Shown: positions 973-59,699, numbered from the stretch's first letter. The stretch is DNA of 64,000 nucleotides from a virus (IMGVR_UViG_3300047095_001251:6203-70202); one strand, 5' to 3'. Notes: generated from the letters alone by a model not told the origin. A program made the numbers and translations.

Positions 973-1602
973 ATGGATATTTCAACTCAGGAAGATTTAC
1001 AGTTACCAGATTTGTCTCAATTAATAACTTCGACTGAATATGTCTCAAAGAACAGATTAGCGACAAATGCATTAGGATTTGTTATTCAAGATACTGTCAA
1101 TAACCCATTTTTTCCAATTCCCATTCCAATTTTAGATAAAGGTAGGGGTTATTTACATTTGGTATTTAGGCAATATATATCTATGTATCAGAAGCAATAT
1201 ACTAATAATACGTTACCGTGGCATTTTGTTGTTCAGTTTGATTCAGTTCAAGGATTTTATAATATTCATAATACTAGACCGATTAATTTAAAGTATCCAT
1301 TTGATAATAATCAATTAAAAGAAATTATTAATGTTAATGATCTAGATGTAGATGATAATATAATGAAATTATTAAATAACCCGAATACAGATCCTTCTGA
1401 GATGATACATATTTGTATTATTGGGGATACTAATTTAGATGTTTACACAAGAGATATTTATGAAAAGATTGGAGAATTTATAATTTCGCCGCTATCAAAA
1501 ATATATAAAATAAGCCCATTTATAAATGATGGTATATTTTTATTTAATACTGGTGACAAATTCAAACATAGTATGATAAGTAATTATATCAGAAGAATTT
1601 AA
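973..1602 (+). CDS. degenerate N-acetylmuramoyl-L-alanine amidase-like (T7 lysozyme fold) protein
   Basis: PWHFVV...TRP...IHICIIGD resembles the amidase_2 core; Zn-ligand set looks incomplete. Confidence 0.4.
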   Translation: MDISTQEDLQLPDLSQLITSTEYVSKNRLATNALGFVIQDTVNNPFFPIPIPILDKGRGYLHLVFRQYISMYQKQYTNNTLPWHFVVQFDSVQGFYNIHNTRPINLKYPFDNNQLKEIINVNDLDVDDNIMKLLNNPNTDPSEMIHICIIGDTNLDVYTRDIYEKIGEFIISPLSKIYKISPFINDGIFLFNTGDKFKHSMISNYIRRI

Positions 1603-1624
1603 AATTTTCTTTTGGAGATTTGTT

Positions 1625-2830
1625 TTGTTAAAATTGTCCAATATTCAAGAATTAGAGATAATTAGAAATTTATTTAATGTAATAGTAGGAACATCTATTT
1701 TAGAAAATAAAGAAACCAAAACATATAGTAAAGAAATAAATCAATTCTTTAATAAATTATACGAATTTAAATTTATATCTATAATTAAATATACAGAAGA
1801 GATCAGACAATTTCATCTGTTATATATTTTAAGTTTATTATTTTTAGATTTTAATGAAAATGAATTAAAGTTAGATTCAGATTTCTTTAAAGATAAAATA
1901 TATTATCCTAATATTATGGATCTTATTATTAATAATTTTAGTTTTTGTAAAAATTTAATTAAAAAACAAATAAGAGAAGCATATAAACAAATTAATGAAA
2001 GTAATAATGAAGTTGTAGAATTTTATTTAGTATTCTATAATACAGAACCAGCAATCATTCAGAATGACATTATCTCTATTTTTATTAAAGGATTATTCTT
2101 AGAGGAAGATCCGATTAATTTAAAAGATATAAGTGTATATTATTTATCTATTTTTAAATTTATATTATATAGTTATTTTAAAAATAAAACATCAAATATT
2201 TTATCCTTCGAATTAGACCCTTCAATTTTAGAGGATGACTCCGCAATGAATAGTAGGTATAAGATATATGAGAAAGGATTAAGGATTACACATATTCAAT
2301 ATCTTTGTAAAGGTAGTGAAACATTAAGTAGAATTTCTGATAATTATGATATTTTAAAAAATAGTTTATTACAAGAGAAACAAGTTATTTCTGAAAACTA
2401 TTTACAGAGGAAATATCATGATGTTGTAGATGGTAGTGTTGTTAAAGATAATAAATTATTAGTTTTGAAATCAAATAGTGATGGATATAATTTATCTAAA
2501 ATAAGTCAGAAGTTACCATTGATTTATAAATTATTAAGATCCGTTTATATTGAAAGTAAAAGTTCTAATTTATTAGAATCTGATAAAAAAGTAATATATG
2601 ACACTATTTATGAAGTGGTATATGGTAAATTTAAAGAAAGATTGAAGGATCCAGATCTATATATCGCATCACAGAGTATTTCCATAGCATTAACCAATGG
2701 ATTGACAAAAGGAACATTTGTTGATCCATTTACAATGACACAAACAAATGTATCTGGATGTGTCTTTGCAAGAGAACTTAAAGTATTTTTAAATATTCTT
2801 TTTCAAGGTTTAAATTTTAATGAGAAGTAA
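1625..2830 (+). CDS. hypothetical protein
   Basis: 401-aa ORF with GGAG RBS upstream. Confidence 0.7.
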   Translation: MLKLSNIQELEIIRNLFNVIVGTSILENKETKTYSKEINQFFNKLYEFKFISIIKYTEEIRQFHLLYILSLLFLDFNENELKLDSDFFKDKIYYPNIMDLIINNFSFCKNLIKKQIREAYKQINESNNEVVEFYLVFYNTEPAIIQNDIISIFIKGLFLEEDPINLKDISVYYLSIFKFILYSYFKNKTSNILSFELDPSILEDDSAMNSRYKIYEKGLRITHIQYLCKGSETLSRISDNYDILKNSLLQEKQVISENYLQRKYHDVVDGSVVKDNKLLVLKSNSDGYNLSKISQKLPLIYKLLRSVYIESKSSNLLESDKKVIYDTIYEVVYGKFKERLKDPDLYIASQSISIALTNGLTKGTFVDPFTMTQTNVSGCVFARELKVFLNILFQGLNFNEK

Positions 2831-3347
2831 ACAAAATCTTTTTTCCCAATTAGATGAAGAAGATGAAATTCAAGAAGAGGATGGAGAACAATCATCAGAA
2901 TCTAGATTTAAGAAAAATTTTAATAATTTAGATGACGATATCACCCATATTGAATTAAAGTTACAAGGTATAGACACACATGTTAAGGTATTAGAGATTA
3001 AGATTAATAATTTAGATAATTTAATCAATCAGGTACAACAGACTCCAAATTCCAATATTGATATTTCTAAGTTATATATGTCATATACTAAGTCTTACGA
3101 ATTATTATCTTTTATGCAGAAGAGTTATCAAGTTTATCTAGATTTGAAGTTTAAGTATAGAGTAGAACAGGATGACTTAAGATTCAAATTGCATAGAATG
3201 GATGAAATTGAGAAGAAGAAGATTAATGAATTAGATGAAATTAATAGTGCAGATATTGTTTCAGCATTAAGTAAATTTATGACGACACCTGGAAAACAAG
3301 AAACTGCTTTAAAAGAGGTATTGGATAATCCAAAATATAGTATATAG
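2820..3347 (+). CDS. hypothetical acidic coiled-coil protein
   Basis: 175-aa ORF overlapping the previous stop; heptad-rich. Confidence 0.65.
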   Translation: MRSKQNLFSQLDEEDEIQEEDGEQSSESRFKKNFNNLDDDITHIELKLQGIDTHVKVLEIKINNLDNLINQVQQTPNSNIDISKLYMSYTKSYELLSFMQKSYQVYLDLKFKYRVEQDDLRFKLHRMDEIEKKKINELDEINSADIVSALSKFMTTPGKQETALKEVLDNPKYSI

Positions 3348-3357
3348 GAGAACTAAA

Positions 3358-3447
3358 ATGATTTGGTTAGTTCTTTTTTTGGTAGGATTGATCGAGTTAT
3401 ATGTTTTAATTCGATTTTTGTTTTTTTATTATGACCGTGAAGATTAA
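3358..3447 (+). CDS. small membrane peptide (29 aa; not in ORF track)
   Basis: AGGAG RBS then MIWLVLFLVGLIELYVLIRFLFFYYDRED*. Confidence 0.5.
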   Translation: MIWLVLFLVGLIELYVLIRFLFFYYDRED

Positions 3448-3470
3448 TTTAATTTCTTAATTGGAGATTT

Positions 3471-4700
3471 TTGATGAGTGATCAAATTGAACAGCAATTG
3501 AAGACTGTTTTTGATGCAGTTTTGACTCAGAATTTTGGTAATTGTATCCCACCTGAACCGTTTGTGACTTCTACATCCATCCCTCATTTAGACGCTTTAT
3601 TGGGTGGAGGTATTGGTAGTTCTGCTCCTATTATGATATCTAGCTCTCCTGAAACAGGAAAGTCAAGTGTATGTATGTATTTAGCAGGGCAATTTATTAA
3701 ACAACATCCAAATTCAATTGCTGTTTATATTGATACAGAAGCGACATCATCAGGAACAAGTGATGCTCAATCTAGCATTAGTAAGAGAATCAAATCGTTG
3801 GGTATCCCTGAACATCGATTTCAATATAATTCATTAATGTTAGATATTCCTGGAATTTATGAATTAATTAAGAAATATGCAGATACTAAAAAGGACTTAG
3901 ATGCTAAAATTAAAGCTTCTGGAAAGGAAGAAGAAATTAAATTATTAATTATTATTGATAGTTTAGCGGGATGTCCTTGTAGTAAAGCTTTGGTTGCGGA
4001 AGATCCCAAAGAAGTTATCGGGTTACGAGCTAGAGAATTATCTCATAATATTGATAGAATCCGTCCGATTCTAGCATTTTCTAAAATTTCTTTAATTTTA
4101 ATTGATCAAGTTAGAGCAAATATGCAAATCCAAGGACAGTTTGCACCAGCACAAGAGAAAACTGTTGGTACGTGGAATAATATTAAAACGAGCACATCGT
4201 CGAATACATTACAGCATGCATTAAAAACTTGGGTATATTTGAGTAAGAAGAAAGAATTAAATCCTGGTGATATGGGGAATGTGATTGGTTGGATTTTGGA
4301 TGTTAAAACTGAGAAAAATAAATTAACCAATTCTGGTTATAGCGTTTCTTTAGTTTTTGATAAAAATTTAACATTACATAAATTATGGTCTGAATATTTA
4401 TTTCTTAAAGAGATGACTACTTCTGAAAAGAAATATTCAGGAGGGGATGCTAAGAAATTACCATACCCATTATTAGTAGGTACTTCTGGTCCATATAGAT
4501 ATATAGATATCGTAGATCCTATTACAAAAAAATCAGTTGGAAAATCTGATAGTTTTTTTGAAAAAGATTTAGAGAAAAAATATAATTCTGATGAGAAATT
4601 TAGAGAAGTTTTTGATAATGCTGTAAAGGTTTCTGTTTATGAAAGAATTAATAATTATCTTCTAAAGATGACGGTTGAAGAAGATGATTTATCAGAATAA
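3471..4700 (+). CDS. uvsX: RecA/UvsX-like recombinase
   Basis: LDALLGGG, Walker A SSPETGKS, YIDTE, Walker B IIIDSLA, DQVR, KNK motifs. Confidence 0.88.
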   Translation: MMSDQIEQQLKTVFDAVLTQNFGNCIPPEPFVTSTSIPHLDALLGGGIGSSAPIMISSSPETGKSSVCMYLAGQFIKQHPNSIAVYIDTEATSSGTSDAQSSISKRIKSLGIPEHRFQYNSLMLDIPGIYELIKKYADTKKDLDAKIKASGKEEEIKLLIIIDSLAGCPCSKALVAEDPKEVIGLRARELSHNIDRIRPILAFSKISLILIDQVRANMQIQGQFAPAQEKTVGTWNNIKTSTSSNTLQHALKTWVYLSKKKELNPGDMGNVIGWILDVKTEKNKLTNSGYSVSLVFDKNLTLHKLWSEYLFLKEMTTSEKKYSGGDAKKLPYPLLVGTSGPYRYIDIVDPITKKSVGKSDSFFEKDLEKKYNSDEKFREVFDNAVKVSVYERINNYLLKMTVEEDDLSE

Positions 4701-12183: not shown

Positions 12184-14889
12184 ATGGATAATTTAAATAA
12201 TTTAGTTACTCCTGATGATTATATTTCGTTTTATTATAACGAATTAAAGAAAGAATTTGATTCTCAGAATATACAGTTATCTAAAGTTGGGTTTGTTGGA
12301 TTTTTATTTAATTTATTAGGAAATACTCAATATGATGTTAAACATTATTATGATAATTTATTTAAAGAGGCATTTCCTATTACATCTTTAAATAATAAAA
12401 ATTTGAAATATCATGGTAATGTTTTTGGATATTCTGCAGAACTTGGAAAATATTCAACATTATCTGGAGTATTTAAATTTAACTTAGAATCACTTCCAGC
12501 ATTATACCCAGATATTGTAAAAAGAGAAATCATTTTAGAAAATATTAAAGTACAAATTGATGAATTAGAATATAATTTAATATCCAAATATCGATTAGTT
12601 TTAAATCAAATAAATGGAAGCATCTCTGGATTTGGGGAGATTACATTTTCTGATGGAAAACAAAAATTAATTCCTATTCAATATTTAGATATAAATTTAC
12701 CTATTTATGAATTAAATCAATACAAGGTAGAAACAATCACGTTTGTCTCTCCGAATTATGTTTATAGGACATTTTATTCTTACCCGATTAAAATAGATGA
12801 TGGTGAATTTTTAACTAATTTAGATGTTGGTATAATAATTAATAATCAAAAACAAAGTTTCGCCGCTCAAACAGATAAGAATAAATATTCATCTTCAGAC
12901 CAAGTAATTTTTTATGAAGTAACCCCAGATAATTATTTGAATATAGAATTAGGTTCAGGTGAAAATGGAGTATATATCCCTAATACAAAAGTATATATAA
13001 CTAAATATACAACAAAAGGAACTTTAGGAAATATAGGATCTAAATCTACTACTAATATTACTGGAGATATTAATATTATAGATTATGATATTAATAATAA
13101 TTCAACAGAACAATTTAATCCAATCCAATTAAATCAATTAATTACAACAAATATAGATAAAGGATATGGAGGAAAAGATCCATTATCTGGTGAAAATTTA
13201 AGAAATGATCTAATATCATATATACAATCTAGAAATAATTTCTGTAGTGAAACAGATTATAGATATATATTAAAAGATTATTTTGATGATTTTGAAATAT
13301 TATTTAAAAAATCAAAATTACAAGAAAATATATTCTATATATATCTATATTTAAAAGATAGATTTAATAATCCAGTTTATTCAATAACCTCTACAGTGTC
13401 CGAACAACAATTTATTTTAAATAAATTTGGAAATAATATATTTTATCCTGAATTTGAAATAGAAACTGAACAATTTATATCACCATTTTTATATATCTAC
13501 GATCCAATTCTAAATATATATAATGGATATATAGTTAAAAAGAATCCAGTATTTTACTCTTCTTCTATTTCTAATGTTATTACTACTTCAGAAAATCCAC
13601 CTATCATATTTTTAGAATTAGCGTATAATCAAAATAATACAATAATTTATTTGAAATCATATCAAGATTTAACTAATTATAATTTCGATTTTACTTCTAT
13701 TGATTTAAAAATACAAGATCAATTATTAGTTAGATCTAATATAGATAATAGTATATTTAGTATAATTATACCAGGGATTATTAAAGATAAAATAGATATA
13801 GAAATATCCGTTTATCCAACATCTACTAATGTTGAATTATTTAAAATTAAATTTACCGATGTTAAACAAGTTGAAGATTTCTCAGATTTAATTAAATTAA
13901 AAACATTTACTAAACCAGATGGAATTAAATACATTCTTAATTTAAGTTTAATTCATAAAGAAACTTTTCTTTCTGATGAAAATTATTATTTAGATAAATT
14001 AATAAATACATTCTCTAATATTAATATAAATAATAATAGAATGATTTCTGATGAGATTTCAATTAAATTACTTAATACTTTTAATGTTAATGGTGAAAAT
14101 CTTAGAAAAATAACTCTACAAAATCATAATTTGAATTCTAGAGAAGTAACCGAATTAAATGTAATTAAGGATACTAATGGAAATTTAAGTGGAAAATATT
14201 TTACATTATCTTCATTAGATGTCGATTATTATCTTTGGTTTTATATTGATGAATTAAATTCGCAAGATCCAAATTTAGTTAATAAAATAGGGATAAAATG
14301 CGAGATTGAAAAAAATAATTCAATAGAATTTGTTAGGTCTGCAATCGTTACGACTTTAAATTTAGTAAATGCATTTTCTTCTGAAATTGATTTAATTGAT
14401 AATGATACATTAAAAATCTATAATACCGAAGGAGGAGTTTTAAAAAATCATCTAAATGTTGGTAATACTGGATTTAATTCATTGATTTTGCAATATGGTG
14501 ATAATGTATCATTAAAGTTCCCTTTGAAATTAAAAATAGATATAATCGCTGATAAATTAGTAGTTGTCTCGAACGGTATTAATATGAACTCTGAGATTGA
14601 TAAAATTAAAGTGTCTATAGCTGAATATTTACTTAAGGATAAAACTAAGATATATCAAAGATTCTATTCTTCGGAAATAATTGATATGCTACAAAGTAAA
14701 CCTTTTGTTAAATATGTATCATGTACTATTACTGATAAATCAGATTCAGTAATACCAGGAAGTAATATTGAAATTTATCCTTATTATGATATTGAGAAGA
14801 AATTAGATAAATATCAATTATTGGATTTTTCCCCTCATTTATTCTGGTGGGATGTTAATAATTTAATTGTTAATTATAAATATAACTAG
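12184..14889 (+). CDS. baseplate wedge protein (T4 gp6/BplJ-like)
   Basis: IELGSGENGVYIP...YTTKGTLGNI...GGKDPLSGENLR...SRNNFCSETDY pattern. Confidence 0.7.
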   Translation: MDNLNNLVTPDDYISFYYNELKKEFDSQNIQLSKVGFVGFLFNLLGNTQYDVKHYYDNLFKEAFPITSLNNKNLKYHGNVFGYSAELGKYSTLSGVFKFNLESLPALYPDIVKREIILENIKVQIDELEYNLISKYRLVLNQINGSISGFGEITFSDGKQKLIPIQYLDINLPIYELNQYKVETITFVSPNYVYRTFYSYPIKIDDGEFLTNLDVGIIINNQKQSFAAQTDKNKYSSSDQVIFYEVTPDNYLNIELGSGENGVYIPNTKVYITKYTTKGTLGNIGSKSTTNITGDINIIDYDINNNSTEQFNPIQLNQLITTNIDKGYGGKDPLSGENLRNDLISYIQSRNNFCSETDYRYILKDYFDDFEILFKKSKLQENIFYIYLYLKDRFNNPVYSITSTVSEQQFILNKFGNNIFYPEFEIETEQFISPFLYIYDPILNIYNGYIVKKNPVFYSSSISNVITTSENPPIIFLELAYNQNNTIIYLKSYQDLTNYNFDFTSIDLKIQDQLLVRSNIDNSIFSIIIPGIIKDKIDIEISVYPTSTNVELFKIKFTDVKQVEDFSDLIKLKTFTKPDGIKYILNLSLIHKETFLSDENYYLDKLINTFSNININNNRMISDEISIKLLNTFNVNGENLRKITLQNHNLNSREVTELNVIKDTNGNLSGKYFTLSSLDVDYYLWFYIDELNSQDPNLVNKIGIKCEIEKNNSIEFVRSAIVTTLNLVNAFSSEIDLIDNDTLKIYNTEGGVLKNHLNVGNTGFNSLILQYGDNVSLKFPLKLKIDIIADKLVVVSNGINMNSEIDKIKVSIAEYLLKDKTKIYQRFYSSEIIDMLQSKPFVKYVSCTITDKSDSVIPGSNIEIYPYYDIEKKLDKYQLLDFSPHLFWWDVNNLIVNYKYN

Positions 14890-14986: not shown

Positions 14987-15029
14987 AAAATTCCCCCGTT
15001 AAAATTTAAAAATTAATGGGGGAATTTTT
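14987..15029 (+). terminator. intrinsic terminator
   Basis: AAAATTCCCCC...GGGGGAATTTT hairpin followed by T-tract. Confidence 0.65.
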
Positions 15030-34217: not shown

Positions 34218-34445
34218 TTGTTTTTTCTCCATTATAGGGGTTTTTGATATTATATAATATCTTTATGAAAAAATTAAAAAAACAAAATTATTATTAATGA
34301 CTATAATTAATTTAAAAGGATAAAAATATAAAGATATTATAAATTTGAAATACTTGATTTTCAATATATTTCATATAGATATTAATAGTAAGAGAAGTTA
34401 AAAAATTCCGCCGCTAAAATTCCAACAATTTAAAAATGGTACATA

Positions 34446-43048: not shown

Positions 43049-43322
43049 AAAGCTCCTTATAGTAGAGATATTATAGGTTAACAAATTCCGTGAATTCAAA
43101 GAACGTCTAAGTTTAATTTTTAAAAATTAAATATGATAACATTGAGCTAAGTTTGAATTTATTCAAAAAAGTGCAACGACCATCTTAATAGAGTACATTT
43201 AAGTAAATGGAAGCGCGGAACATCTCAACATAATAAAATAAAAAGATGAAGATATGGTCTAAACTATATTGAAAGATATAGAAATTTATATAATTTAACG
43301 AATTATATATAATATTTTTTTG
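43034..43322 (+). ncRNA. group I self-splicing intron (IA2-like, no ORF, 289 nt)
   Basis: P1 AGU/UUUUUA...UAGAAAGCU with U-G at splice site; P2 GAGA loop; P3 UUCCGUG/CGCGGAA; P4 UUCAA/UUGAG; P7 GACCA/UGGUC in GCAACGACCA and AAGAUAUGGUC; P7.1, P7.2, P8 CAUCU/AGAUG; P9 GAAA loop; terminal G at 43322; P10 AGAAA/UUUCU. Confidence 0.9.
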
Positions 43323-48978: not shown

Positions 48979-51900
48979 ATGGCAATTCCTGCAGTTTATG
49001 TTACTATTGAAGATGCTAGTTTTGCTCTTCCTTCAACTAATACTGGTAGATCCGTTTATTTAGCGATTCTTGCTGATAGGGGTCCTCACAATAAAGTTGT
49101 TGAAGTAAATAGTATAAGTCAAGCAAGAAGATTATTTGGAAAACCCAATTATCAAAGAACTGGGCAAGGTCATTATCTAATGGAGAAAGCCTTACAGTAT
49201 ACCCAAAGAGTATATGTCGTTCGTCCAGTTTTATTAGAATCACCAACTGAGTCGAATAATGCTGCAATAGCAAATGCATCGATCAGATATAATGGTCCTA
49301 ATGATAGCACATCGCCCGTTAATGGTATTAAATTATTTTTTACTTCTAAAGCTGACATTCAAAATGATTCCGCCGCTCAAAGAGTATATGCTTTAGATTC
49401 AAATGTGGAAGAATATTTTTCAATCGGCGATTTAATCTGTAACGAGTCTGATAAAAATGTCGCTAGTACGAAAGCTAAAGAAGTTACAGCTATTTTAACA
49501 GATACTTATTTAAGTAAAAAGTACCTATTATTAGATTCTCCTTACGAAGGAACTTCTTCGAAGAATTCAAATAATAACTTAATCTATACCGGCACATTTA
49601 CTCCAATTGATTCTAATATGAATCATAAGTTTAAATTTACTAATGGTCAAACTAAAGTAATCTGTAATCAAAGTGCATTTGATGCTAGTTTAAATTTAGT
49701 TGATTCTTTTATTGTTTCATCCTTACAAAATTCAAATAAAGAAAGATCATCAACTAAAGTTTTAACAAACATTATTAAAACAAATGCAACTAAAAATAAA
49801 TACACTCTACAAATTAATTCTGTAAATTTAGATGATAATGTTATTAAATTAACGTCTCAATCTGGAGAAGATTTTTATATTATTTTTGATATTGATGCAG
49901 GAGGAATCACCGGGGTAACAATTCCCCCAGGAGCAAAATTAGTTAGTATTAATGGGTTTGACCCAATTAATGATACTGCAAATGATATTATCTCATATAT
50001 TATCGCATCTACTACAACTGATTTTAATACAGCATTTTTAACTACTCAGATCACTCAAGATACTGTAGAATTTGAATGTAATATTGCAGGGGTCGTACCC
50101 GGTAATAATCGGATTTCGGTATTAGGTGTTAACGCTTCTTCAAATTTCAATACCTCCACAGTAGAAGGTACTAATGATGAGTATTCATTAACTTTAACGG
50201 AAGGGTATAAAGGGAATACTACATCAACACTAGAAGTCGCAGATATTTTTTCAGTTATTCCTTCTGGTCAAAATGCAAATACTGTAATTAGATCAACTAC
50301 TGGATTAGAATTTAAAGCGGTAAAATATTTTCAAGCTCCTGAATTTATCTCAAATTCTCAATACTCATTTATTAATAATAGTTCAACAGTTACATGTATC
50401 GACCAAGTCGCATTTAACAGTGTTAATGAAGGTGATTGGATCTATACTGGAAACGATTATTCTGAAGCTAGACAAGTTATTGATAAAATTTCTTCTACTG
50501 TTAATAATGTTACTACTTATAATTTAATTCTAAATGCACCTTACTCTGGAATTTCTTCACCGATTAACGGGGAAAGTGTAAAAAAATATATTCCAATTGA
50601 AATAGTTAGTCAGGCTAACTCAAGATATTCTACTAATTTTCAATCCGAGAATAACAATATTTGGACTTTCTATGCAGTAGGTGCCGGAAAGTTTTATAAT
50701 AAATTATATTTGGTTGGTAGAAGAAATACTACTTTAGAAAAAATGTATGTTGATGGGAATGGAGTTGTTAAGTTTAAATATTTATTTATGGACTTATCAC
50801 TTTACCAAGAAAATGACGACGGGACAGCTACTTTATTAGAAGGTCCTTGGTCAGTATCTTTAGTTAAAGAAGTTCCATCTAATTCATCAAGTAGTGGGGA
50901 AAAACAGATTGTTAGAGATATATATTCTGGAAAAGAAATGTATATCGAAACAATTATTAATGATAAAAGTGAATTTATTAGATGTATCGAATCTGATGGA
51001 ATTTCAAGTCTATTAGATGAAGAAAATGGTGAAAGTTTGAGATTACAAGTTCAATCTATTTTCTCATCTGGTAAAGTATCTGGGACAAGTGTTATTGGTT
51101 CAGATGGATTTAAATTGCAAAGAGGAGAAGACGGAATCCAATTTAATGATCAAGGCAGGCTCAATATAGACGCTGTTTCAGGCGGTTCTGAGGAATCACC
51201 AGCAGAGATAGGGGGATTGCTTAAACAAGCCTACAATGGCACTCTAGATAGCGAGGATGGCTCAATTGAATTGATTGTACAAACTATCTATCCTAGATAT
51301 CAATTTGATTATGTTGTTTGTGGAGGATATCCTAACTATGTTCAAAGTTCCGCTAGACAATTAGCAGATCAACGTAGTGATTGTATGTGTTTAGCAGACA
51401 CTGGGAATAATTCAAAAGCAGATGACGATATAGCTTATCGTGATTCGTTAGGGTGGAATACATTTAACGCTATGTTATATTCTCAATTTAGAAAACGGTT
51501 TGATGAATTCACCGGATCGAGTAAATTCCAATTTACCCCTGTTTATCATGCTTTGGAAAATCATTTATTTATTGATGATAAATATTGGATTGCAGAACCA
51601 GTTGCAGGTATTTTAAAGGGTGCAATTCAAGAGCCTATTGAGTTAAGTTACTCCCCATCGATCATCAAGATGGAAGATTTAATGGATAAAGAAATAAATG
51701 TAACTATTTCAGAACCAGATGGAAAATACTTCCTTACTCAATTTACTGCATATAAACAACTTTCTGTATTAAAACGCGCACATGCTGTTAAATTTGTTCA
51801 TTATGTTAAAAAAGAAATTCCCAAATTATTAAAAGATATTTTGCAGCAAAAAGGAACTTCATATTGGACGAATATGGTTAATTCTAGAATTAATGGGTTC

Positions 51901-52059
51901 TTACGTAAATTCCAAGGAGATACGGGCAGATTTGCTGCTATTTCTAGTTTTTCAGTAGCTTCTAAATTCGATGAAGATAGATCGGAAATTGATGTGGTCA
52001 TTAGTTTACGACCTATTCGTGCAATCGAATCTATTAATGTTCGTATTGTTGTAAGTTAA
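48979..52059 (+). CDS. tail sheath protein
   Basis: PAVYVTIED, DRGP..FGKP, WIAEPVAG..G, C-terminal LRPIRAIESINVRI. Confidence 0.92.
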   Translation: MAIPAVYVTIEDASFALPSTNTGRSVYLAILADRGPHNKVVEVNSISQARRLFGKPNYQRTGQGHYLMEKALQYTQRVYVVRPVLLESPTESNNAAIANASIRYNGPNDSTSPVNGIKLFFTSKADIQNDSAAQRVYALDSNVEEYFSIGDLICNESDKNVASTKAKEVTAILTDTYLSKKYLLLDSPYEGTSSKNSNNNLIYTGTFTPIDSNMNHKFKFTNGQTKVICNQSAFDASLNLVDSFIVSSLQNSNKERSSTKVLTNIIKTNATKNKYTLQINSVNLDDNVIKLTSQSGEDFYIIFDIDAGGITGVTIPPGAKLVSINGFDPINDTANDIISYIIASTTTDFNTAFLTTQITQDTVEFECNIAGVVPGNNRISVLGVNASSNFNTSTVEGTNDEYSLTLTEGYKGNTTSTLEVADIFSVIPSGQNANTVIRSTTGLEFKAVKYFQAPEFISNSQYSFINNSSTVTCIDQVAFNSVNEGDWIYTGNDYSEARQVIDKISSTVNNVTTYNLILNAPYSGISSPINGESVKKYIPIEIVSQANSRYSTNFQSENNNIWTFYAVGAGKFYNKLYLVGRRNTTLEKMYVDGNGVVKFKYLFMDLSLYQENDDGTATLLEGPWSVSLVKEVPSNSSSSGEKQIVRDIYSGKEMYIETIINDKSEFIRCIESDGISSLLDEENGESLRLQVQSIFSSGKVSGTSVIGSDGFKLQRGEDGIQFNDQGRLNIDAVSGGSEESPAEIGGLLKQAYNGTLDSEDGSIELIVQTIYPRYQFDYVVCGGYPNYVQSSARQLADQRSDCMCLADTGNNSKADDDIAYRDSLGWNTFNAMLYSQFRKRFDEFTGSSKFQFTPVYHALENHLFIDDKYWIAEPVAGILKGAIQEPIELSYSPSIIKMEDLMDKEINVTISEPDGKYFLTQFTAYKQLSVLKRAHAVKFVHYVKKEIPKLLKDILQQKGTSYWTNMVNSRINGFLRKFQGDTGRFAAISSFSVASKFDEDRSEIDVVISLRPIRAIESINVRIVVS

Positions 52060-52949: not shown

Positions 52950-53330
52950 TTATATATTTTCCAATATTAATTTCTCTAATTCAATATTTAATTCATCAAT
53001 ATCAATATTTAGATAACATAATATATTATTTCCACATTTTCGATATCGATTTTCATTAATACGTATACATGTATGGAGTTTTTCATAAAAAGATACATCA
53101 AATTGTAACGAATATTTGTTATCATCAGTAATATTCATAAAAAATGAGACACTATTTTTAATTTGATGATTAATGAAACAATTATTTTGCTCATTTTCTC
53201 CGATTATTCTGATTTTATGTTTCCAAAGAATAATTATCTGAAAATTTTTTAATCTAATATTTTGTGGATATTTTTTATATCCTATATTAAACAACTTGTT
53301 AATAGTATTTTCCAAGTTAACCTCATACAC
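52950..53330 (-). CDS. C-terminal-tag family protein 1
   Basis: Ends IDELNIELEKLILENI. Confidence 0.7.
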   Translation of the reverse strand: MYEVNLENTINKLFNIGYKKYPQNIRLKNFQIIILWKHKIRIIGENEQNNCFINHQIKNSVSFFMNITDDNKYSLQFDVSFYEKLHTCIRINENRYRKCGNNILCYLNIDIDELNIELEKLILENI

Positions 53331-53353
53331 ACCAATTTTAATTTAAAAAATAA

Positions 53354-53686
53354 TTAAATACTACTTAATATTAATTTCTCTAATTCAATATTTAATTCAT
53401 CAATATCTTCTGAATTCAAAAGCGATTCGATGACTAAATTATAGTCTAGTTTCGATGAGAATTCCAACCCATTTGAAAATTCTATTATTATATCTCTATC
53501 ATAATTAATCGCATAGATTTTATTTTTTTTAAGAATTGTTTGGAATGATTTTTTTATAAATATCTCTGGATAATAATATAAATTAAATTTTATTTTATAA
53601 TGAATTAAGTCGAAATCTATTGAAAAACACTCGTTTAATTTATATATATCTTTAAGTTTTTTACACGTATCTTCGATTATATTCAT
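53354..53686 (-). CDS. C-terminal-tag family protein 2
   Basis: Ends IDELNIELEKLILSSI; 41 bp identical to protein 1 (52963-53003 vs 53367-53407). Confidence 0.7.
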   Translation of the reverse strand: MNIIEDTCKKLKDIYKLNECFSIDFDLIHYKIKFNLYYYPEIFIKKSFQTILKKNKIYAINYDRDIIIEFSNGLEFSSKLDYNLVIESLLNSEDIDELNIELEKLILSSI

Positions 53687-53705
53687 AATAAATTATTCCT
53701 ATTAT

Positions 53706-54083
53706 TTAAATATTCTTTAATATTAGCTCTTCTAATCTTTCATTTAATTTTTCGAATATATTATTATTATAAAATCTATAATTAAGATTTATTAATTCTT
53801 CATTATTGATTTGTTGAATATTATCATCTTTTATATTATATAAATCGACGGTAAAGCCATCTTTTTTTTTATAAATGTGACGTATTTCCATTCCAAACGA
53901 ATGCATTATATACAACTTATTCCCAAATGATACTTGTATGGAGCAGTATTTACTGTGATCGAAGTATTCGAAGCGTATTTTAAAATAATGATATTTAAAA
54001 ACAAAAGACTTAATTTTTATTTTTTCTAATATTAAGAATGTATTACAAAGTTTATTTAAATTATCAATTATACCAGTATTCAT
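53706..54083 (-). CDS. C-terminal-tag family protein 3
   Basis: Ends FEKLNERLEELILKNI. Confidence 0.7.
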   Translation of the reverse strand: MNTGIIDNLNKLCNTFLILEKIKIKSFVFKYHYFKIRFEYFDHSKYCSIQVSFGNKLYIMHSFGMEIRHIYKKKDGFTVDLYNIKDDNIQQINNEELINLNYRFYNNNIFEKLNERLEELILKNI

Positions 54084-54406
54084 TAAATGGTATCCAGTAT
54101 CTTGAATTCTAATTCATTATTTAATCTATCTATCTCATTTTCTAATTTTAATAGATATAATTTATTATTTATTTTATTTAAAAATGATTTATTACTTACT
54201 AACTTGAGTTTTAAAAGTTCTAACGAATTATACTCTATATATTCTTTATTTAGGTATATTATTGGATTTTGATATTTATTTTTTTTAATATATAAATTAC
54301 TAGAAAATTTTAAATAGTAATAATTCATATTTAATTTTCTAATTAATTTAAATAATTCAATTATACCAATAGTGAAATCTATTTTTAATTGAGAGATTTT
54401 ATCCAT
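54083..54406 (-). CDS. C-terminal-tag family protein 4
   Basis: Ends IDRLNNELEFKILDTI; promoter motif 54440-54459. Confidence 0.7.
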   Translation of the reverse strand: MDKISQLKIDFTIGIIELFKLIRKLNMNYYYLKFSSNLYIKKNKYQNPIIYLNKEYIEYNSLELLKLKLVSNKSFLNKINNKLYLLKLENEIDRLNNELEFKILDTI

Positions 54407-54501
54407 TTTCCTCTATTTAATATTTAAGTTAAACTGATATATATAATATCTTTATGAAATAAATTAAAAATTAATTTCGCCGATCAAGAAGATAAATAAA
54501 A

Positions 54502-54843
54502 TCAAATATTTTCTAATATTAGTTCTTCTAATTTAATTTCTATTTCTTCTATATTTATAAAACTCGCAATTTTCACAAAGTAATCGAAATCTAATATTGT
54601 TATATTTAATTTATTTGTTTTTAAAATTAGTTTAGTAATTTTATCTAATTTGTATTCTTGAACTTTGTAATCATATTTAAAATCCAACTGGAACTCAACT
54701 ACATTAGATTGTCTAATAAATATTTTTGGATCAGTAAGTAATAATATAGTCAAAATATAATTTTCAAAAACAAACGACTTTTCTAAAAAAAAGCATTGAT
54801 CATAAGTGAAATTTAATATTTTTTCTAATTCTTTAATTAACAT
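54502..54843 (-). CDS. C-terminal-tag family protein 5
   Basis: Ends IEEIEIKLEELILENI. Confidence 0.7.
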   Translation of the reverse strand: MLIKELEKILNFTYDQCFFLEKSFVFENYILTILLLTDPKIFIRQSNVVEFQLDFKYDYKVQEYKLDKITKLILKTNKLNITILDFDYFVKIASFINIEEIEIKLEELILENI

Positions 54844-54853
54844 TTAAAAAATC

Positions 54854-55159
54854 CTATATATATAATAAAGTAAATTCTTCTATTATTATATTTAATTCGT
54901 CTATATTTAACATATTAATATATGATAGATAACCTAGATTTTGATATTCACCAAAAATAACTTTATATTTGTCTTCATATTTAATACATTTAACAAAAAT
55001 CGATACTATTATATTTTTTTCAAATTCTAAAAAAAAAGCATTTACGTCGGAATAAAAAGTAATTTTACAATTAGATACTTTGAAAATTAATGATTCTTTG
55101 AGTTTAGTTTTATTTAAAATTTTAAATAATATAATAAATTTATCAGTTATCTCATTCAT
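54854..55159 (-). CDS. C-terminal-tag family protein 6
   Basis: Ends IDELNIIIEEFTLLYI. Confidence 0.7.
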   Translation of the reverse strand: MNEITDKFIILFKILNKTKLKESLIFKVSNCKITFYSDVNAFFLEFEKNIIVSIFVKCIKYEDKYKVIFGEYQNLGYLSYINMLNIDELNIIIEEFTLLYI

Positions 55160-55190
55160 ATTTTTGATCGGCGAAATTTAAAAAAATTGA

Positions 55191-55562
55191 TTAAATGTTA
55201 GCTAATGTCAACTCTTCTAATTTAATATTTAATTCATCAATATCCATATTTAGCCAATGGAATGAACATTCACGCCCTCCTAAAAATGTTCTACGTACAT
55301 GTAGTCCTACATTCCAGTCATTATTAATATAATGGACGAATACTACTTCTATAATTAATGTTTTTTTATCTATCGTCTTAACCTGACGACGTATTGAAAG
55401 AAAATCATTAATTAACGTATTATTTTCATCATCAGTTCCTATAATATGTAACGTATTTTCATGAATTCTATCTGTGTTGGGTTTAATTATTTTAAATTTA
55501 TTTATAAAGATTGGGTGATCGAATTCCAATAATTTAAATATGCGATGTAATAAACTAATCAA
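55191..55562 (-). CDS. C-terminal-tag family protein 7
   Basis: Ends IDELNIKLEELTLANI. Confidence 0.7.
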   Translation of the reverse strand: MISLLHRIFKLLEFDHPIFINKFKIIKPNTDRIHENTLHIIGTDDENNTLINDFLSIRRQVKTIDKKTLIIEVVFVHYINNDWNVGLHVRRTFLGGRECSFHWLNMDIDELNIKLEELTLANI

Positions 55563-55576
55563 ATATAAATCCTTAT

Positions 55577-55831
55577 TTAAATTTTAAAAAAATCTTGTCT
55601 AAATTTTTTCATAAAGACGATAACATCATTTAAATTTTCAAATTCTTTATTAATTTCAGTATAATCATATTTAGAAACCGCAGAATATGCAATATACATA
55701 TATTCATTGATATGTCCAAGTTTATCTATTTTAAACGAGTATTCCCACGGGACATATTCAATATAAAATAATTCAAATGAATCAACATAAAATCCCTTCA
55801 ATTCTTCAGAAACTGCTAATAATTTAAACAC
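55577..55831 (-). CDS. hypothetical protein
   Basis: 84-aa ORF with AAGGGG RBS. Confidence 0.55.
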   Translation of the reverse strand: MFKLLAVSEELKGFYVDSFELFYIEYVPWEYSFKIDKLGHINEYMYIAYSAVSKYDYTEINKEFENLNDVIVFMKKFRQDFFKI

Positions 55832-55997
55832 TAATTTCCCCTTATTATATTACTTCAATTAAACTAATAAAATTCTTTATATCAATTTAATATATTGATA
55901 GTATTTATTAATATCTATATCAAATTAAATAAAAACAAATTTTTAAATTCCGCCGCTCAAGATATGAAATAAAAAATAATATATCTAAACTACTTTT

Positions 55998-56417
55998 TCA
56001 AATATTGATTAGGATATATTCCTCATAATATGTGTTTATTTTATTTATTAATTCGATATTGTTATTAACTAATATTTCATCAAGTTCAATAATTAGACCT
56101 TCAGATTGTTCTAATATATTTGCACTCATCAGTCTTCTCAAATAATAATCTTCAATATTAAAGTAAATCTCATCATAGCAAAACCGTATTCTATTAATTT
56201 GAATTCTATTATAATTTAATGAATCGTGTAGATGGCATTTATTATAATGTGTTGCCGCAAAAGCTTTAAGTTTATCTAAAATCTCATCATCCAATATATT
56301 AATTAATACTCTGTTCCTAATTAATTTAAAAGATATTTTATTCTTTAAAGAAAATGTTTTCTGTTTTTTATTTGGAAAATTATTAGATAAAAAAAATAAC
56401 GTTGTTAATGCATTCAT
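55998..56417 (-). CDS. C-terminal-tag family protein 8
   Basis: Ends INKINTYYEEYILINI. Confidence 0.65.
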   Translation of the reverse strand: MNALTTLFFLSNNFPNKKQKTFSLKNKISFKLIRNRVLINILDDEILDKLKAFAATHYNKCHLHDSLNYNRIQINRIRFCYDEIYFNIEDYYLRRLMSANILEQSEGLIIELDEILVNNNIELINKINTYYEEYILINI

Positions 56418-56422
56418 CTATA

Positions 56423-56923
56423 TTATTTTCGAATATTTAAATAATTAGACCAAGAACCCCCGTTAATCATAAAATTCAATGCGGTCTGCAAACAAGAAAA
56501 TTCAGATTTAGAAAATGTGAACATAAATTTCTCTCCATTTGTACTCATCGTTTTAATAATAAATCTATCATCCTCTTTACTGAATAACGTAATGTTTGGA
56601 GTCCATGGATTCTCTGCTCCAATAATTCTTTCTAAATTATAAAAATCAACTTGATTATTTAATATCTTAAAAGCGGTTTCACTAAATATGTTAATAGATG
56701 TTAAAAATCGCATTTTGTCTTTATTAATTGACGATTTTGTAATACTATCAGATTGAATTTCAAAAAATCCAATTCTTAAATTATTAAAATCTGCATTATA
56801 CCCTATAGTCAAAACCCCTACTTCCTTTGGATCACTATTTAATTCTTCTTTATCATATAGTTTTTGATTAATTAACCAATACATGTCTACAATATTATGC
56901 TTAGTTCTTTGAGTCTCTTCCAA
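56423..56923 (-). CDS. hypothetical protein
   Basis: 166-aa ORF with AAGGA RBS. Confidence 0.6.
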   Translation of the reverse strand: MEETQRTKHNIVDMYWLINQKLYDKEELNSDPKEVGVLTIGYNADFNNLRIGFFEIQSDSITKSSINKDKMRFLTSINIFSETAFKILNNQVDFYNLERIIGAENPWTPNITLFSKEDDRFIIKTMSTNGEKFMFTFSKSEFSCLQTALNFMINGGSWSNYLNIRK

Positions 56924-57024
56924 TTTAATTAATCCTTTATATTAATTAATGTTAATTTCTCTTTTAATTCGAGAAATTCTATTATAGTTCTTGTGATTGG
57001 ATATTTTGTGAATAATTATAGGAT

Positions 57025-58023
57025 CTATTTCCAACATTGAGGGTCAGATTTAAATGAATCTCCATGAATCCCAAACGATACAGCAGGGCATCCTCTACAA
57101 CTATTTACAATTTCACAATTTTTACACTTTTCATAATTATTAAAATTTCTTAATTTTTTCATTAAGTCGGAATTAACATAGATATCATAAAAACTCATAC
57201 TAGGGTGTTTTCCTATGGGAATTAATAATCTCCTACATGCATAAACTGAACCGTCACTCATTTTAGAAAGAAGACTAATCCCTGCCTGACATCCCCCTGA
57301 TACTTTGTCTGCAATATTATTTGCTAATAATGAAAATAATGGGTCTTTTAATAACAATTTAACTTTAGAATTTTTGGACATTTCTAATAATTCTGTTAAT
57401 ATACGTTTATACTCTGCAGTTTCTATATTTGTATCTACATTTATGAAATTTGTTTTCACTATTCTAGAAATTGCAAATCCGAATAAATCAGTATTCTCTG
57501 TTAGATATTTGTATAATGGTACTATTTGATCAATATTCTCATTTGAAACATTACATAAAACAACCGTTTTAATATTATTCAGATTTAATAAATTTACCAT
57601 GTTACAAGAATGTTCAAATAACCCAAGACTTTCTCTAACAAGATCGTGATAACTTCTTAACCCATCCAATGTGATCTGAAATGACTTTAATCCATTATTA
57701 TAAAGGTTCTTAATCAATTCGATATTTAAGTGATCTGGATTTCCAAGTATCCCAACTTTTATAAATTTTGATGAGGCATACCCAACTGCTTCTATTAAAT
57801 CTGGATGAAGAATCGGATCTCCACCAGTAAAATGAATAACTGGTGAAAATATAATATTTGATAAACTATTTAACTTATTTAAAAATTCAATAAAGTTATC
57901 GATTGTATTTTTAATGTCTACCATCTTAGAGTGATTATTTGGGTGATCTTCTCCAAGATAACAATGAGGGCATTGTTGTGTACATGCTTCTGTGATATGA
58001 TATTGTAAAGTGAAATCAATCAT
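57025..58023 (-). CDS. radical SAM/SPASM peptide maturase
   Basis: HITEACTQQCPHCY (CxxxCxxC), FTGGDP, SPASM CQAG...DGSVYACR...CKNC...CRGCPA...DPQCWK. Confidence 0.92.
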   Translation of the reverse strand: MIDFTLQYHITEACTQQCPHCYLGEDHPNNHSKMVDIKNTIDNFIEFLNKLNSLSNIIFSPVIHFTGGDPILHPDLIEAVGYASSKFIKVGILGNPDHLNIELIKNLYNNGLKSFQITLDGLRSYHDLVRESLGLFEHSCNMVNLLNLNNIKTVVLCNVSNENIDQIVPLYKYLTENTDLFGFAISRIVKTNFINVDTNIETAEYKRILTELLEMSKNSKVKLLLKDPLFSLLANNIADKVSGGCQAGISLLSKMSDGSVYACRRLLIPIGKHPSMSFYDIYVNSDLMKKLRNFNNYEKCKNCEIVNSCRGCPAVSFGIHGDSFKSDPQCWK

Positions 58024-58033
58024 AGTGAATTAC

Positions 58034-58135
58034 TTATCCGCACCCATTACAACCGCTACAATATGGATTCTCTTCTTTAGAATCCCCGATTAGATTATTT
58101 AAAAAACCAATTAATACAATTTCGTCGTTTGTCAT
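58034..58135 (-). CDS. putative RiPP precursor peptide, 33 aa (not in ORF track)
   Basis: AGAGG RBS; MTNDEIVLIGFLNNLIGDSKEENPYCSGCNGCG*; stop is 10 nt before the rSAM start; promoter motif 58233-58252. Confidence 0.8.
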   Translation of the reverse strand: MTNDEIVLIGFLNNLIGDSKEENPYCSGCNGCG

Positions 58136-58336
58136 TTTTAATTTTCCTCTAATGATTAAGTTGGGTTTGAAATTAATTCTTTTATACTTTTTTCTATTTT
58201 AAATATTTCCATTGGTAGTAGTTATTAGGTATTACATAATATCTTTATGAAATTTTTTAAAAATAAAATTCGGAAAAAATGCCCTTATCAGAGAGAGATT
58301 AGTCTCTTTGATAAGGGCTTATTTTTTTACAATTTT

Positions 58337-58576
58337 TTAATTTACTTCTTGTTGAGTGAATGCGAGTTCTTCTTCAATTTTTTCAAGTTTGGAAGAAATC
58401 TCATTAATTGAATTAATAACGATATCTTGGTCATCATTTAAATTAATTGATTCATTAATAACTTTGCCCAATTCATCAATTTTGGTATTTAATTTATCAA
58501 TTTCTTTTCTGATTGATAAGATATAAAAAAGATTTTCGAAAAAGAATTCCAAATTTTTAAAGAATGTTTCGAACAT
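58337..58576 (-). CDS. small coiled-coil protein
   Basis: AGGAG RBS; terminator hairpin 58282-58319. Confidence 0.6.
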   Translation of the reverse strand: MFETFFKNLEFFFENLFYILSIRKEIDKLNTKIDELGKVINESINLNDDQDIVINSINEISSKLEKIEEELAFTQQEVN

Positions 58577-58596
58577 TTTAATCTCCTATTATGAGG

Positions 58597-58959
58597 TTAG
58601 ATTATTTTAAGGATATACTCTTCATATGATTGTTTGATTAGATCTAGTTTATTATCTAGATCCAATATTTCATTTAAGAATTTAATATTAATATCTGTGA
58701 ATATTATCGTATGGATATCTGACTGAATCATAAAATATAACTGCCCTGTCTTCATTAATCTTACATTAAAAGTTAGTTCTTGTAATTTATAATTTTTAAA
58801 ATTAATAAAATCCAATTTGTTAATAATTAAGTTCTTGGAATTATAATTTAATAATTTTAATTCTACAAGGCTACAATCTTTTCGTTGTATAATTACATAA
58901 TCAGGAATAGTTAATTTTTTAATTTTAAAAAAGAAATTTAAATCTTGAAGATAAATCAT
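58597..58959 (-). CDS. C-terminal-tag family protein 9 (divergent)
   Basis: Ends LDLIKQSYEEYILKII. Confidence 0.6.
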   Translation of the reverse strand: MIYLQDLNFFFKIKKLTIPDYVIIQRKDCSLVELKLLNYNSKNLIINKLDFINFKNYKLQELTFNVRLMKTGQLYFMIQSDIHTIIFTDINIKFLNEILDLDNKLDLIKQSYEEYILKII

Positions 58960-58978
58960 AAAATATTTTCTCTTAGAG

Positions 58979-59281
58979 TTACTCCATAATCAAGGTTTCT
59001 TCTTGTGATTTTTGAATAGGTGTTCTTGGTTTGGTTGATCTGTTCCAAGTTTTTAATACTTTAATTTCATCTTCTAATAATTTAATTCTATCTCTTAATT
59101 GATCTATATCTTGTTTTTGTGAAGTTACTAATGATAATTTTGGTAAAATGTCTTTAAATACTTTTTCAACGTTATCAAATTTGATATTTATATTTTCAAA
59201 TGATTCTACTATTTGTCCGATTAGAATAGGTAATGACTTTTTATTTTTAGCGGCGAGATTTGCTAATTCACTTAATTTCAT
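58979..59281 (-). CDS. small coiled-coil protein
   Basis: 100-aa ORF behind promoter motif 59305-59320. Confidence 0.55.
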   Translation of the reverse strand: MKLSELANLAAKNKKSLPILIGQIVESFENINIKFDNVEKVFKDILPKLSLVTSQKQDIDQLRDRIKLLEDEIKVLKTWNRSTKPRTPIQKSQEETLIME

Positions 59282-59336
59282 TTATTTTTCCTTTGTGAAT
59301 GTTGTTATATCTTTATGAAATTTTCTAAAAAAATAA

Positions 59337-59699
59337 TTATATATTTAATTTTTCTTTTAATAATTCTTTAATTATATTTATATCCAAATTTAAAATTTCG
59401 CCGCTCAAAAAAACATGCGCAATTCTATTTTTAAAAATAATAATAAATGAATAATCAGATCTGCCTATTTCCAACATAGCGAATCCAATATCAGATTCCC
59501 AATTTAAAGTTATATTCCCAGTTATTTCAATATGTGCGTCTTCTGGGATTAATACATTATTTAAATCATTAATAACACTTAATGCATTATTAATTATCTT
59601 TAAATCAGGAGGAATAGCATTATATCCATCCCAATTATTTGGGAAATTACCAAATTCAATAATTTCTTTTTTAATCTCCCAACGATTTAACATATTCAT
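59337..59699 (-). CDS. hypothetical protein (NWDGY motif)
   Basis: NNWDGYNAIPPD...GNITLNW. Confidence 0.6.
   Translation of the reverse strand: MNMLNRWEIKKEIIEFGNFPNNWDGYNAIPPDLKIINNALSVINDLNNVLIPEDAHIEITGNITLNWESDIGFAMLEIGRSDYSFIIIFKNRIAHVFLSGEILNLDINIIKELLKEKLNI

Follow-up and report, generated by a model that had tools for sequence, protein, structure and literature searches.

The window analysed here (IMGVR_UViG_3300047095_001251:6203-70202) is a stretch of 64,000 nucleotides of viral DNA, corresponding to bases 6203-70202 of one 70,202-base contig with 28% G+C, and it carries a dispersed, GC-rich motif, about TTAAAATTYCGCCGCTCAAG(ATAAA), at a density of about 1 copy per 4-5 kb. The motif is a genuine DNA signal, selected at the DNA level and strand-biased, and the whole phage clade to which the contig belongs is enriched in a related core, YYGCCGHTMA. 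The contig is a fragment of a large, T4-like, AT-rich lake phage. As for function, the most likely single reading, to be held tentatively, is that the copies form a phage-specific promoter or initiator class.

The word AATTYCGCCGCTCAA, with up to 2 mismatches allowed, has 12 matches in the window (10 on the + strand and 2 on the – strand), against an expectation of 0.12 from 100 dinucleotide shuffles, among which the maximum was 2 and none reached 12. A weight matrix built from the 10 best sites and scanned over the whole contig returned 13 sites of at least 20 bits, called robust (11 on + and 2 on –; 12 of them in the window), and 5 further sites at 14-17 bits, called borderline, all on +. 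Since the maximum scores in 20 second-order Markov simulations ranged from 8.5 to 16.9 bits, only the 13 robust sites, which lie beyond these maxima, are individually safe, while the five borderline ones are individually uncertain. The over-representation that an earlier note had seen in this sequence is therefore upheld by shuffles and Markov models alike. The sites are the following, robust ones first and borderline ones after them, with coordinates counted from the first base of the window unless referred to the contig.

Contig 4316, upstream of the window, + strand: robust copy, at least 20 bits.
12856-12870, + strand: AGTTTCGCCGCTCAA in the baseplate-wedge-like open reading frame (ORF) 12184-14889, read S F A A Q in the same frame as the copy at 49366; 28.6 bits.
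22652-22666, + strand: weaker copy, AATTCCGCCGTTCCA, in ORF 21524-22789, ending 127 bases before the next start (22794); 21.6 bits.
27483-27497, + strand: intergenic copy sharing bases with the stop codon of ORF 27019-27483 (LigD_N phosphoesterase); 26.5 bits.
34404-34418, + strand: intergenic copy, followed after 27 bases by the ATG of the gene for the DnaB-like helicase; 28.5 bits.
37345-37359, + strand: perfect copy in ORF 36763-38904 (portal position), read N S A A Q; 31.5 bits.
45803-45817, + strand: perfect copy in ORF 45150-46163, read I S P L K; 31.0 bits.
49366-49380, + strand: GATTCCGCCGCTCAA in the gene for the tail sheath (48979-52059), translated as D S A A Q; 28.1 bits.
54473-54487, + strand: intergenic copy among minus-strand genes, antisense, 13 bases upstream of a minus-strand TTTCATAAAGATAT box (54446-54459); 25.8 bits.
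55164-55178, – strand: copy filling the gap between two minus-strand genes; 26.9 bits.
55946-55960, + strand: perfect intergenic copy among minus-strand genes, 21 bases upstream of the weak minus-strand box TTTGATATAGATAT (55911-55924); 32.0 bits.
59246-59260, – strand: weaker copy, AATCTCGCCGCTAAA, in ORF 58979-59281, where it falls on codons 8-12 (N L A A K); 21.4 bits.
59394-59408, + strand: perfect copy, antisense in ORF 59337-59699, read L S G E I; 30.3 bits.
1482-1496, + strand: borderline, AATTTCGCCGCTATC in ORF 973-1602, ending 128 bases before the next start (1625); 15.6 bits.
8061, + strand: borderline, without the GCCG core; 14-17 bits.
14989-15003, + strand: borderline C-run variant, AATTCCCCCGTTAAA, forming the 5' arm of the hairpin AAATTCCCCC...GGGGGAATTT, which is followed by a T run; 16.4 bits.
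31307-31321, + strand: borderline, AATTTCCCCGTTAAA in the 5' part of ORF 31133-32296; 15.1 bits.
62177-62191, + strand: borderline, AATTCCACCGTTAAA, antisense to the DNA polymerase gene 59671-62184, whose GTG start it overlaps; 16.1 bits.

Of the roughly 15 copies listed by the earlier note, 12 are robust by the matrix and the one at 1482 is borderline, while two are at chance level: site 7221, with 11.7 bits, falls inside the chance range, and site 18239 does not rise above the 6-bit listing floor. The reading frames it named were right (SAAQ at 37345 and, in the sheath, at 49366; ISPL at 1482 and 45803; LSGEI at 59394). Its label "portal" for ORF 36763-38904, which is based on size, position and conservation, was not confirmed by Pfam, PHROGs or a PDB sequence search; the copy at 37345 falls in a segment of this protein that is variable among relatives.

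Aligned copies are conserved over 17-18 positions, A-AATTYCGCCGMTMAA-G, and 20 identical bases are common to three of them, so that the unit comprises 17-20 bases with conserved AAATT and CAAG flanks. Robust copies are asymmetric, with no hairpin, internal repeat or complementary partner; in a test for intrinsic terminators only the borderline copy at 14989 proved to be a hairpin arm followed by a T run, which is read as a putative terminator. A reader of the ops/RfaH antitermination type was also considered, and no NusG domain was found at E <=1 in the contig and its three longest relatives (G0-G3, see below). Intergenic DNA, which makes up 5,369 of the 64,000 bases, holds 5 of the 12 robust window sites. 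The 15 + strand sites of at least 14 bits (8061 left out) avoid each other, with a smallest gap of 1473 bases (P = 0.005); the same test gave no significance for the 9 strongest + sites, nor for both strands together.

Selection on the DNA, not on the protein, had been proposed in the earlier note and is borne out by a codon-aware comparison. Robust intragenic copies occupy two sense reading frames and one antisense frame, in genes of both orientations, with same-frame readings N/D/S-S/F-A-A-Q at 37345, 49366 and 12856, and the motif is spelled with codons that are seldom used here (7% of Ala codons are GCC, 8% of Ser codons TCG, 13% of Pro codons CCG and 2% of Leu codons CTC). When synonymous codons were shuffled within genes 300 times, leaving the intergenic copies (4 on +, 1 on –) untouched, the core count had means of 4.08 on + and 1.10 on –, against 9 and 2 observed; for the intragenic copies this means 5 on + and 1 on – where about 0.1 per strand is expected. 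Since synonymous-codon shuffling abolishes the intragenic copies, selection acts on the DNA, and the codon-level cost shows that it is strong. In ORF 45150-46163 the motif overlies the conserved K-I-[SA]-P-L-[KE], and at site 45803 three of eight homologues (the window and two shorter relatives, L003 and L006, L numbers denoting such loci) spell ATT KCG CCG, with ATT GCG CCG TTA at these codons in L003 and L006, while the other five use AT-rich codons.

Strand polarity is pronounced, with 11 + and 2 – among the robust sites and 16:2 among all sites of at least 14 bits. In + gene territory all 8 robust copies are on +, and in the minus-strand gene cluster (52950-63776) 3 are on + and 2 on –; the contig, of which 70% is coding on +, confounds strand with gene sense, and by our own arithmetic the 13 robust sites favour a "one strand" model over a "sense strand" model by a factor of only about 4. 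The polarity claimed in the earlier note is supported in part, few of the sites lying among minus-strand genes. Further sites come from three IMG/VR records, which hold collinear homologues for 31 of the 67 ORFs of the contig. These are G1 (G001, 51 kb), G2 (G002, 88 kb) and G3 (G003, 286 kb, 95% complete), the present contig being G0 (G000). By crude ORF calls, single copies of the clade core in G0-G3 number 21 on + and 13 on – inside minus-strand genes and 27 and 10 inside + genes; the 21:13 is not what a pure sense rule predicts. G3 itself is nearly balanced between the strands (33 + and 28 –), with 22 of its single intragenic copies in sense and 20 in antisense.

A polar bias of 11:2 to 16:2 and a density of about 1 per 4 kb, as for Chi in E. 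coli, recall the Chi-like recombination site suggested in the earlier note, which would switch a host nuclease of the RecBCD/AddAB type to recombination and whose orientation would be set by the exposure of DNA ends. Known Chi sites have 5-8 bases (GCTGGTGG in E. coli, AGCGG in B. subtilis), and copies with GCCGCT do carry AGCGG in their reverse complement; strong Shine-Dalgarno use together with 28% G+C would moreover fit a low-GC host. The motif and Chi are thus alike in being polar, dispersed, over-represented and tolerated inside genes, but differ in that the selected unit here has 17-20 bases, with its AAATT and CAAG flanks, and in that the short core shows no skew outside the long motif. 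Counts of AGCGG, 12 versus 25, become about 12 versus 15 (an estimate) after removal of some 10 motif copies; tables from maximal-order Markov models are topped only by pieces of the long motif, GCCGC and CGCCG, with no short core; and family members with GCCGAT or GCCGTT contain no AGCGG at all. The motif is not a classical Chi, and the Chi proposal is very improbable. A generic protein binding site or cue, which the earlier note also offered, is compatible with the data.

The position of several copies points to gene expression. Three robust copies lie in sense 4, 8 and 27 bases before start codons (starts 55159, 27506 and 34446): copy 55164 ends 4 bases before the ATG of ORF 54854-55159, copy 27483 ends 8 bases before the ATG of ORF 27506-28195 with no Shine-Dalgarno sequence between, and copy 34404 precedes the helicase gene. 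The genes starting at 27506, 34446 and 55159 lack a GGAG-type Shine-Dalgarno sequence, unlike most other genes, and these start-proximal copies, together with one in the relative L003, tie the motif to the expression of the gene downstream. In sense orientation are 10 of the 13 robust and 13 of the 17 classed sites, and by our own counts 7 of the 13 sense sites, one of them on the assumption of an internal ATG at 31346, lie at most 130 bases upstream of the next start on the same strand.

The same sense orientation and the three copies in the initiation regions of genes without Shine-Dalgarno sequence would also suit a signal that acts in the sense transcripts, where a phage protein would bind it as a translational operator or processing site; one copy sits at codons 8-12, an Hfq-domain protein is encoded at contig 3266-3640, and 13-pair hairpins, one with an apparent compensatory change, stand beside ribosome-binding sites in G2 and G3. 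Such an RNA-level role is nevertheless doubtful, given that three robust and one borderline copies are antisense to the local genes, that single copies in G3 are sense and antisense about equally, and that no hairpin arises from the window copies; a scan of the window against Rfam (gathering threshold) and for tRNAs gave no match.

As regards relatives, the 19-mer is found among viral contigs in one unrelated contig of 45% G+C, and the 15-mer in at least 118 stretches, with a single match each among the matches listed; 9 fetched single-match loci gain a second, weaker matrix match and none holds a cluster. Because the matches listed are single and unclustered, the exact word is private to this lineage. 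The core YYGCCGHTMA, on the other hand, outnumbers its reversed control 12:0 in G0, 4:2 in G1, 29:1 in G2, 61:5 in G3 and 42:12 in 60 other loci, and L003, with 57% capsid identity, has TAAATTCCGCCGCTAAAT 15 bases before a start codon in addition to the site matching 45803. In an unbiased count of GC-containing k-mers in G2 and G3, GATCTTGCCG and TCTTGCCGATAA come at or near the top. Many intergenic copies in these two genomes have a start codon at a distance of about 12-30 bases, and in those examined a Shine-Dalgarno sequence intervenes; the word also occurs as dozens of single intragenic copies in several frames and both orientations.

G002 and G003 further contain hairpins with 13-pair stems, ATCGGCAAGATCT-loop-AGATCTTGCCGAT (e.g., G003 34454-34480, 97370-97410 and 124300-124340), mostly close upstream of a ribosome-binding site and start codon, with one following the capsid gene. 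One copy reads as a compensatory stem change, GACCT paired with AGGTC, and the 3' arm spells TTGCCGATAA, the –10 word of sigma-28. In the parts of a survey of E. coli FliA that deal with its promoters, the –10 element of sigma-28 (FliA/SigD) is given as GCCGATAA, TTGCCGATAA is the –10 element in many of the promoters listed, and 30 of 52 FliA sites are intragenic (PMC4183435). G2 and G3 thus carry the word letter for letter, the window forms GCCGCTAA and GCCGATCA match the –10 element at 7 of 8 letters and GCCGCTCA at 6 of 8, and frequent intragenic sites are a further likeness (PMC4183435, same parts). Among the differences are that the base after GCCG is mostly C in the window and that the AAATT flank does not belong to the sigma-28 consensus.

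A phage-specific promoter or initiator class is the most likely reading because of the asymmetric block of about 20 bases, the copies at starts without Shine-Dalgarno sequence, the density, the bias toward the strand of the structural genes, the sigma-28-like core in relatives and the polymerase genes of the clade. The last of these are two RNA polymerase beta-like genes in G003 (178162-179391 and 222385-223752; loci L225 and L226), whose products match Pfam RNA_pol_Rpb2_6 with E 5e-40 and 1.5e-22, and because of which the clade plausibly needs promoter classes of its own. The motif would be recognised by a sequence-specific part of the machinery with which the phage expresses its own genes. 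Most likely it would be a promoter or initiator in a single block, its reader being either an RNA polymerase encoded by the phage or a –35-independent sigma-like factor, and its main direction of firing would be that of the structural genes. Copies directly before genes without Shine-Dalgarno sequence would then give short-leader mRNAs, those within long structural operons would be internal promoters, and + copies among minus-strand genes would yield antisense or read-through transcripts. Both the start of transcription at the motif and the nature of its reader are inferences.

Single-block promoters, as those of the T7/T3/SP6 type or those of phiKZ-type giant-phage polymerases, are asymmetric and conserved over about 17-23 bases. 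The motif resembles them in its asymmetry and conservation, its AT-rich 5' part followed by a specific core, and its many copies, mostly on the gene strand and in part intragenic; the difference is that the fragment has no polymerase gene and that several copies are antisense or far from gene starts. T4 late promoters (TATAAATA, read by gp55) are –10-only elements that recur every 3-4 kb or so, nearly always on the strand of the late genes. They are comparable in density, in the bias toward the strand of the major capsid gene and in the occurrence of some intragenic copies, and the phage has a gp23-like capsid protein; the motif differs in being GC-rich and in its absence before the capsid gene. 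The T4-type late box itself is present in counts of 8 versus 12, with no + strand enrichment.

A second promoter-like element, the TTTCATAAAGATAT box, usually followed by TATATAAT-like bases, occurs in the window in 15 perfect copies, and in 27 with at most 2 mismatches, against 8.2 expected. Its copies include the following.

TTTCATAAAGATAT boxes, + strand: 4720, 15043, 29116, 31007, 32300, and others.
TTTCATAAAGATAT boxes, – strand: 28488, 28900, 33294, 34257, 54446, 58239, 59307, 62971, 63830, and others.

Because nearly all perfect copies point toward an adjacent downstream gene, the TTTCATAAAGATAT box is probably a main promoter class of the phage, and it accounts for only part of the genes. 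The relatives L002 and L003 carry TTCATATAGATAT-like boxes, that of L002 upstream of a helicase homologue, and a repeat of about 100 bases with the hairpin GTCCAGTC-GAAA-GACTGGAC has three copies directly beside TTTCATAAAGATAT boxes.

Four copies lie near such boxes: three + copies in the minus-strand cluster have a minus-strand box of the TTTCATAAAGATAT type 13, 21 and 73 bases downstream of them in the sense of that box (the last, copy 59394, before the box at 59307-59320), and copy 34404 is 21 bases downstream of the promoter-like box TTTCATATAGATAT (34369-34382). That 34404, 54473, 55946 and 59394 all lie 13-73 bases from such a box, and that 5 of 12 robust window sites are intergenic, would agree with an operator to which a regulator or an architectural protein binds sequence-specifically, the orientation being incidental or constrained by coding; a TGA in one of the three reverse-orientation frames could bias intragenic copies to the sense strand, and receiver-domain and STAS-domain genes are present at 24470-25597. 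A monomeric, asymmetric operator of 17-20 bases without half-sites would be unusual, however, seven robust copies deep inside genes, with their rare-codon cost, are hard to square with promoter control, and no helix-turn-helix or other DNA-binding domain was recognised, so that this explanation seems rather unlikely.

Several observations weigh against the promoter or initiator reading. The major capsid gene has no motif in the 130 bases upstream of it in the window, and none was seen by eye before it in 21 relatives; helicase homologues in 11 relatives likewise have none upstream. In the operon that starts at 45150 the first copy comes only 653 bases into the opening gene, for five robust copies the nearest downstream start is over 350 bases away, and three robust and one borderline + copies are antisense to minus-strand genes. 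After the antisense copies there is no terminator specific to the + strand, the nearest, at 58281, reading as bidirectional. No RNA polymerase or sigma gene was found in the contig, which is a 26% fragment, no Sigma70_r2 or r4_2 domain in G0-G3, where G0 is that same fragment, and no match to a T7-type polymerase in G0-G3, where the search control likewise gave no match. The only r4 matches were two sub-threshold ones in G002, beside intron-like elements. A sigma-28-type –35 TAAA about 15 bases upstream of GCCG occurs at 1 of 17 window sites, against a background of 0.051. Finally, the intragenic balance in G3 (20 antisense, 22 sense) and the clade-wide 21:13 on + inside minus-strand genes fit a strand-level DNA process better than ordinary promoters.

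The copies deep inside genes or in antisense, the balance in G3, the lack of a copy before the capsid gene and the lack of a known reader indeed favour a process of this kind, which could consist of one-strand DNA processing, with nicks by a phage nickase of the T5, phiKMV-like or tf type, or, as a variant, of priming or loading at fixed sites. The motif would then be a non-transcriptional, strand-polar DNA mark, clade-wide in large T4-like phages, with nick, priming or loading sites on the strand of the capsid gene that a phage enzyme reads and that are kept in essential genes despite rare codons. This is the main rival of the promoter reading, although on balance unlikely to be the right one.

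Nick sites of T5, phiKMV-like phages and tf have an asymmetric consensus of 9-20 bases, in few to 17 copies and essentially on one strand; in phage tf, which has two convergent gene sets, mapping placed 14 nicks on the top strand, which also bears all 17 near-consensus words, the positions of putative sites are similar in tf relatives, and phiKMV-like phages have a nick consensus of 20 bases, as set out in the portions of the report devoted to these sites (PMC3517423). The motif is likewise an asymmetric word of 17-20 bases, with 11 of 13 robust and 16 of all 18 copies on one strand, distributed between genes and inside them in any frame, about 1 per 4-5 kb. One position is kept in three of eight homologues (window, L003, L006), which recalls the partial conservation of positions in tf (PMC3517423, same portions); + is favoured clade-wide inside minus-strand genes (21:13), and the mutual avoidance of the 15 + sites would fit as well. 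On the other side stand the two robust copies on the other strand, one of them 148 bases from a + copy, the 33 + and 28 – copies of G3, the spacing test without significance for the 9 strongest + sites or both strands, and the copies that replace the Shine-Dalgarno region of three genes, which would be unexpected for a pure DNA mark. Among the window ORFs of at least 80 residues, 3 of which were left out, none was recognised as a gene for a nickase or for an HNH or GIY-YIG protein, and most matched nothing. The motif differs from the nick sites in its two robust copies on the other strand and in its copies at ribosome-binding positions. An explanation outside those considered here has a small share of the probability.

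As to the phage, the one sequencing run listed with its DNA is a lake-water metagenome, possibly the source sample, no RNA run being listed, and by CheckV estimate the contig is about 26% of the genome, with about 74% missing. Structural genes recognised are those for the terminase large subunit, the tail sheath, the gp23-like major capsid protein and the prohead protease, and those for replication and recombination encode a helicase of the DnaB type, a UvsX-like recombinase and a DNA polymerase. Also recognised are tnpA and tnpB, which form an IS200/IS605 pair, genes for proteins with STAS and receiver domains, one for a LigD-type phosphoesterase and, outside the window, one for an Hfq-like protein. 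Pfam PF07068 is carried by some capsid homologues. Megablast of 20 kb found no DNA relative among cultured phages, tblastn with the capsid protein found no cultured-phage relative, and the portal-position protein found no relative among viral contigs. In the giant phage G003 a gp23-like capsid gene stands alongside the polymerase genes, and a T4-type head with its own multisubunit polymerases is an unusual combination.

ORF 12184-14889 has an Atlas lead to gp6-like baseplate wedge proteins; a 901-residue ORF considered as a hidden RNA polymerase was dropped, its Atlas lead being a baseplate wedge. The Hfq-domain protein, with 124 residues, lies outside the window on the – strand (contig 3266-3640, locus L179; E 2.8e-13 in two matched stretches), and its gene adjoins one with a weak, sub-threshold AAA ATPase match and a DUF2201 (VWA-like domain) metallopeptidase-like gene. 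The STAS-domain gene (24470-24970, +), STAS being the anti-sigma-antagonist fold, overlaps the convergent receiver-domain gene (24956-25597, –), and the two suggest phage interference with a partner-switching or two-component pathway. ORF 27019-27483, the LigD-type 3'-phosphoesterase, is separated by a motif-filled gap of 22 bases from ORF 27506-28195, which weakly matches a PHROG family annotated as DNA polymerase/primase; a split end-repair module is suspected.

A complete IS200/IS605 element lies in 28500-31010 (tnpA 29208-29573, tnpB 29590-30762), and a second tnpB-like reading frame is cut by the contig start; a role of the motif as TnpB guide was considered and dropped, the repeats beside tnpB showing no likeness to it. 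In a 573-base gap of the minus-strand cluster, beside a TTTCATAAAGATAT box, a 16-pair hairpin with T runs on both strands (58281-58318) would be a bidirectional terminator, which hints that both strands are transcribed there. The relatives also contain a dispersed, structured + strand repeat, ...aaggtKCAACGACTATCCCgnaaGGGAGTACACTCAAGCGAGTGGAAG..., in loci L003, L033, L038, L048 and L051 (8 copies in 7 kb of L051) and in G002 at 48377 and 60756. One copy falls within the capsid gene match of L003, and this match is 2.5 kb long rather than 1.6 kb; the window has a single degenerate copy at about 43165-43225, between 43048 and 43320; these repeats look like self-splicing introns or a similar mobile RNA element.

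For an uncultured lineage without cultured relative, a cis-signal that can be read from the DNA is one of few handles on its programme. If the motif is a promoter class, it would mark the transcription units of the phage and point to an unrecognised polymerase or sigma-like reader in a clade of T4-like giant phages. If the copies are instead nick or priming sites, they would be a second, deeply conserved example of the long-unexplained one-strand interruptions of the T5 type, with variation traceable across relatives; should the nick reading be true, the core YYGCCGHTMA would give a means to look for the enzyme and would extend the T5/tf phenomenon to a deep uncultured lineage.

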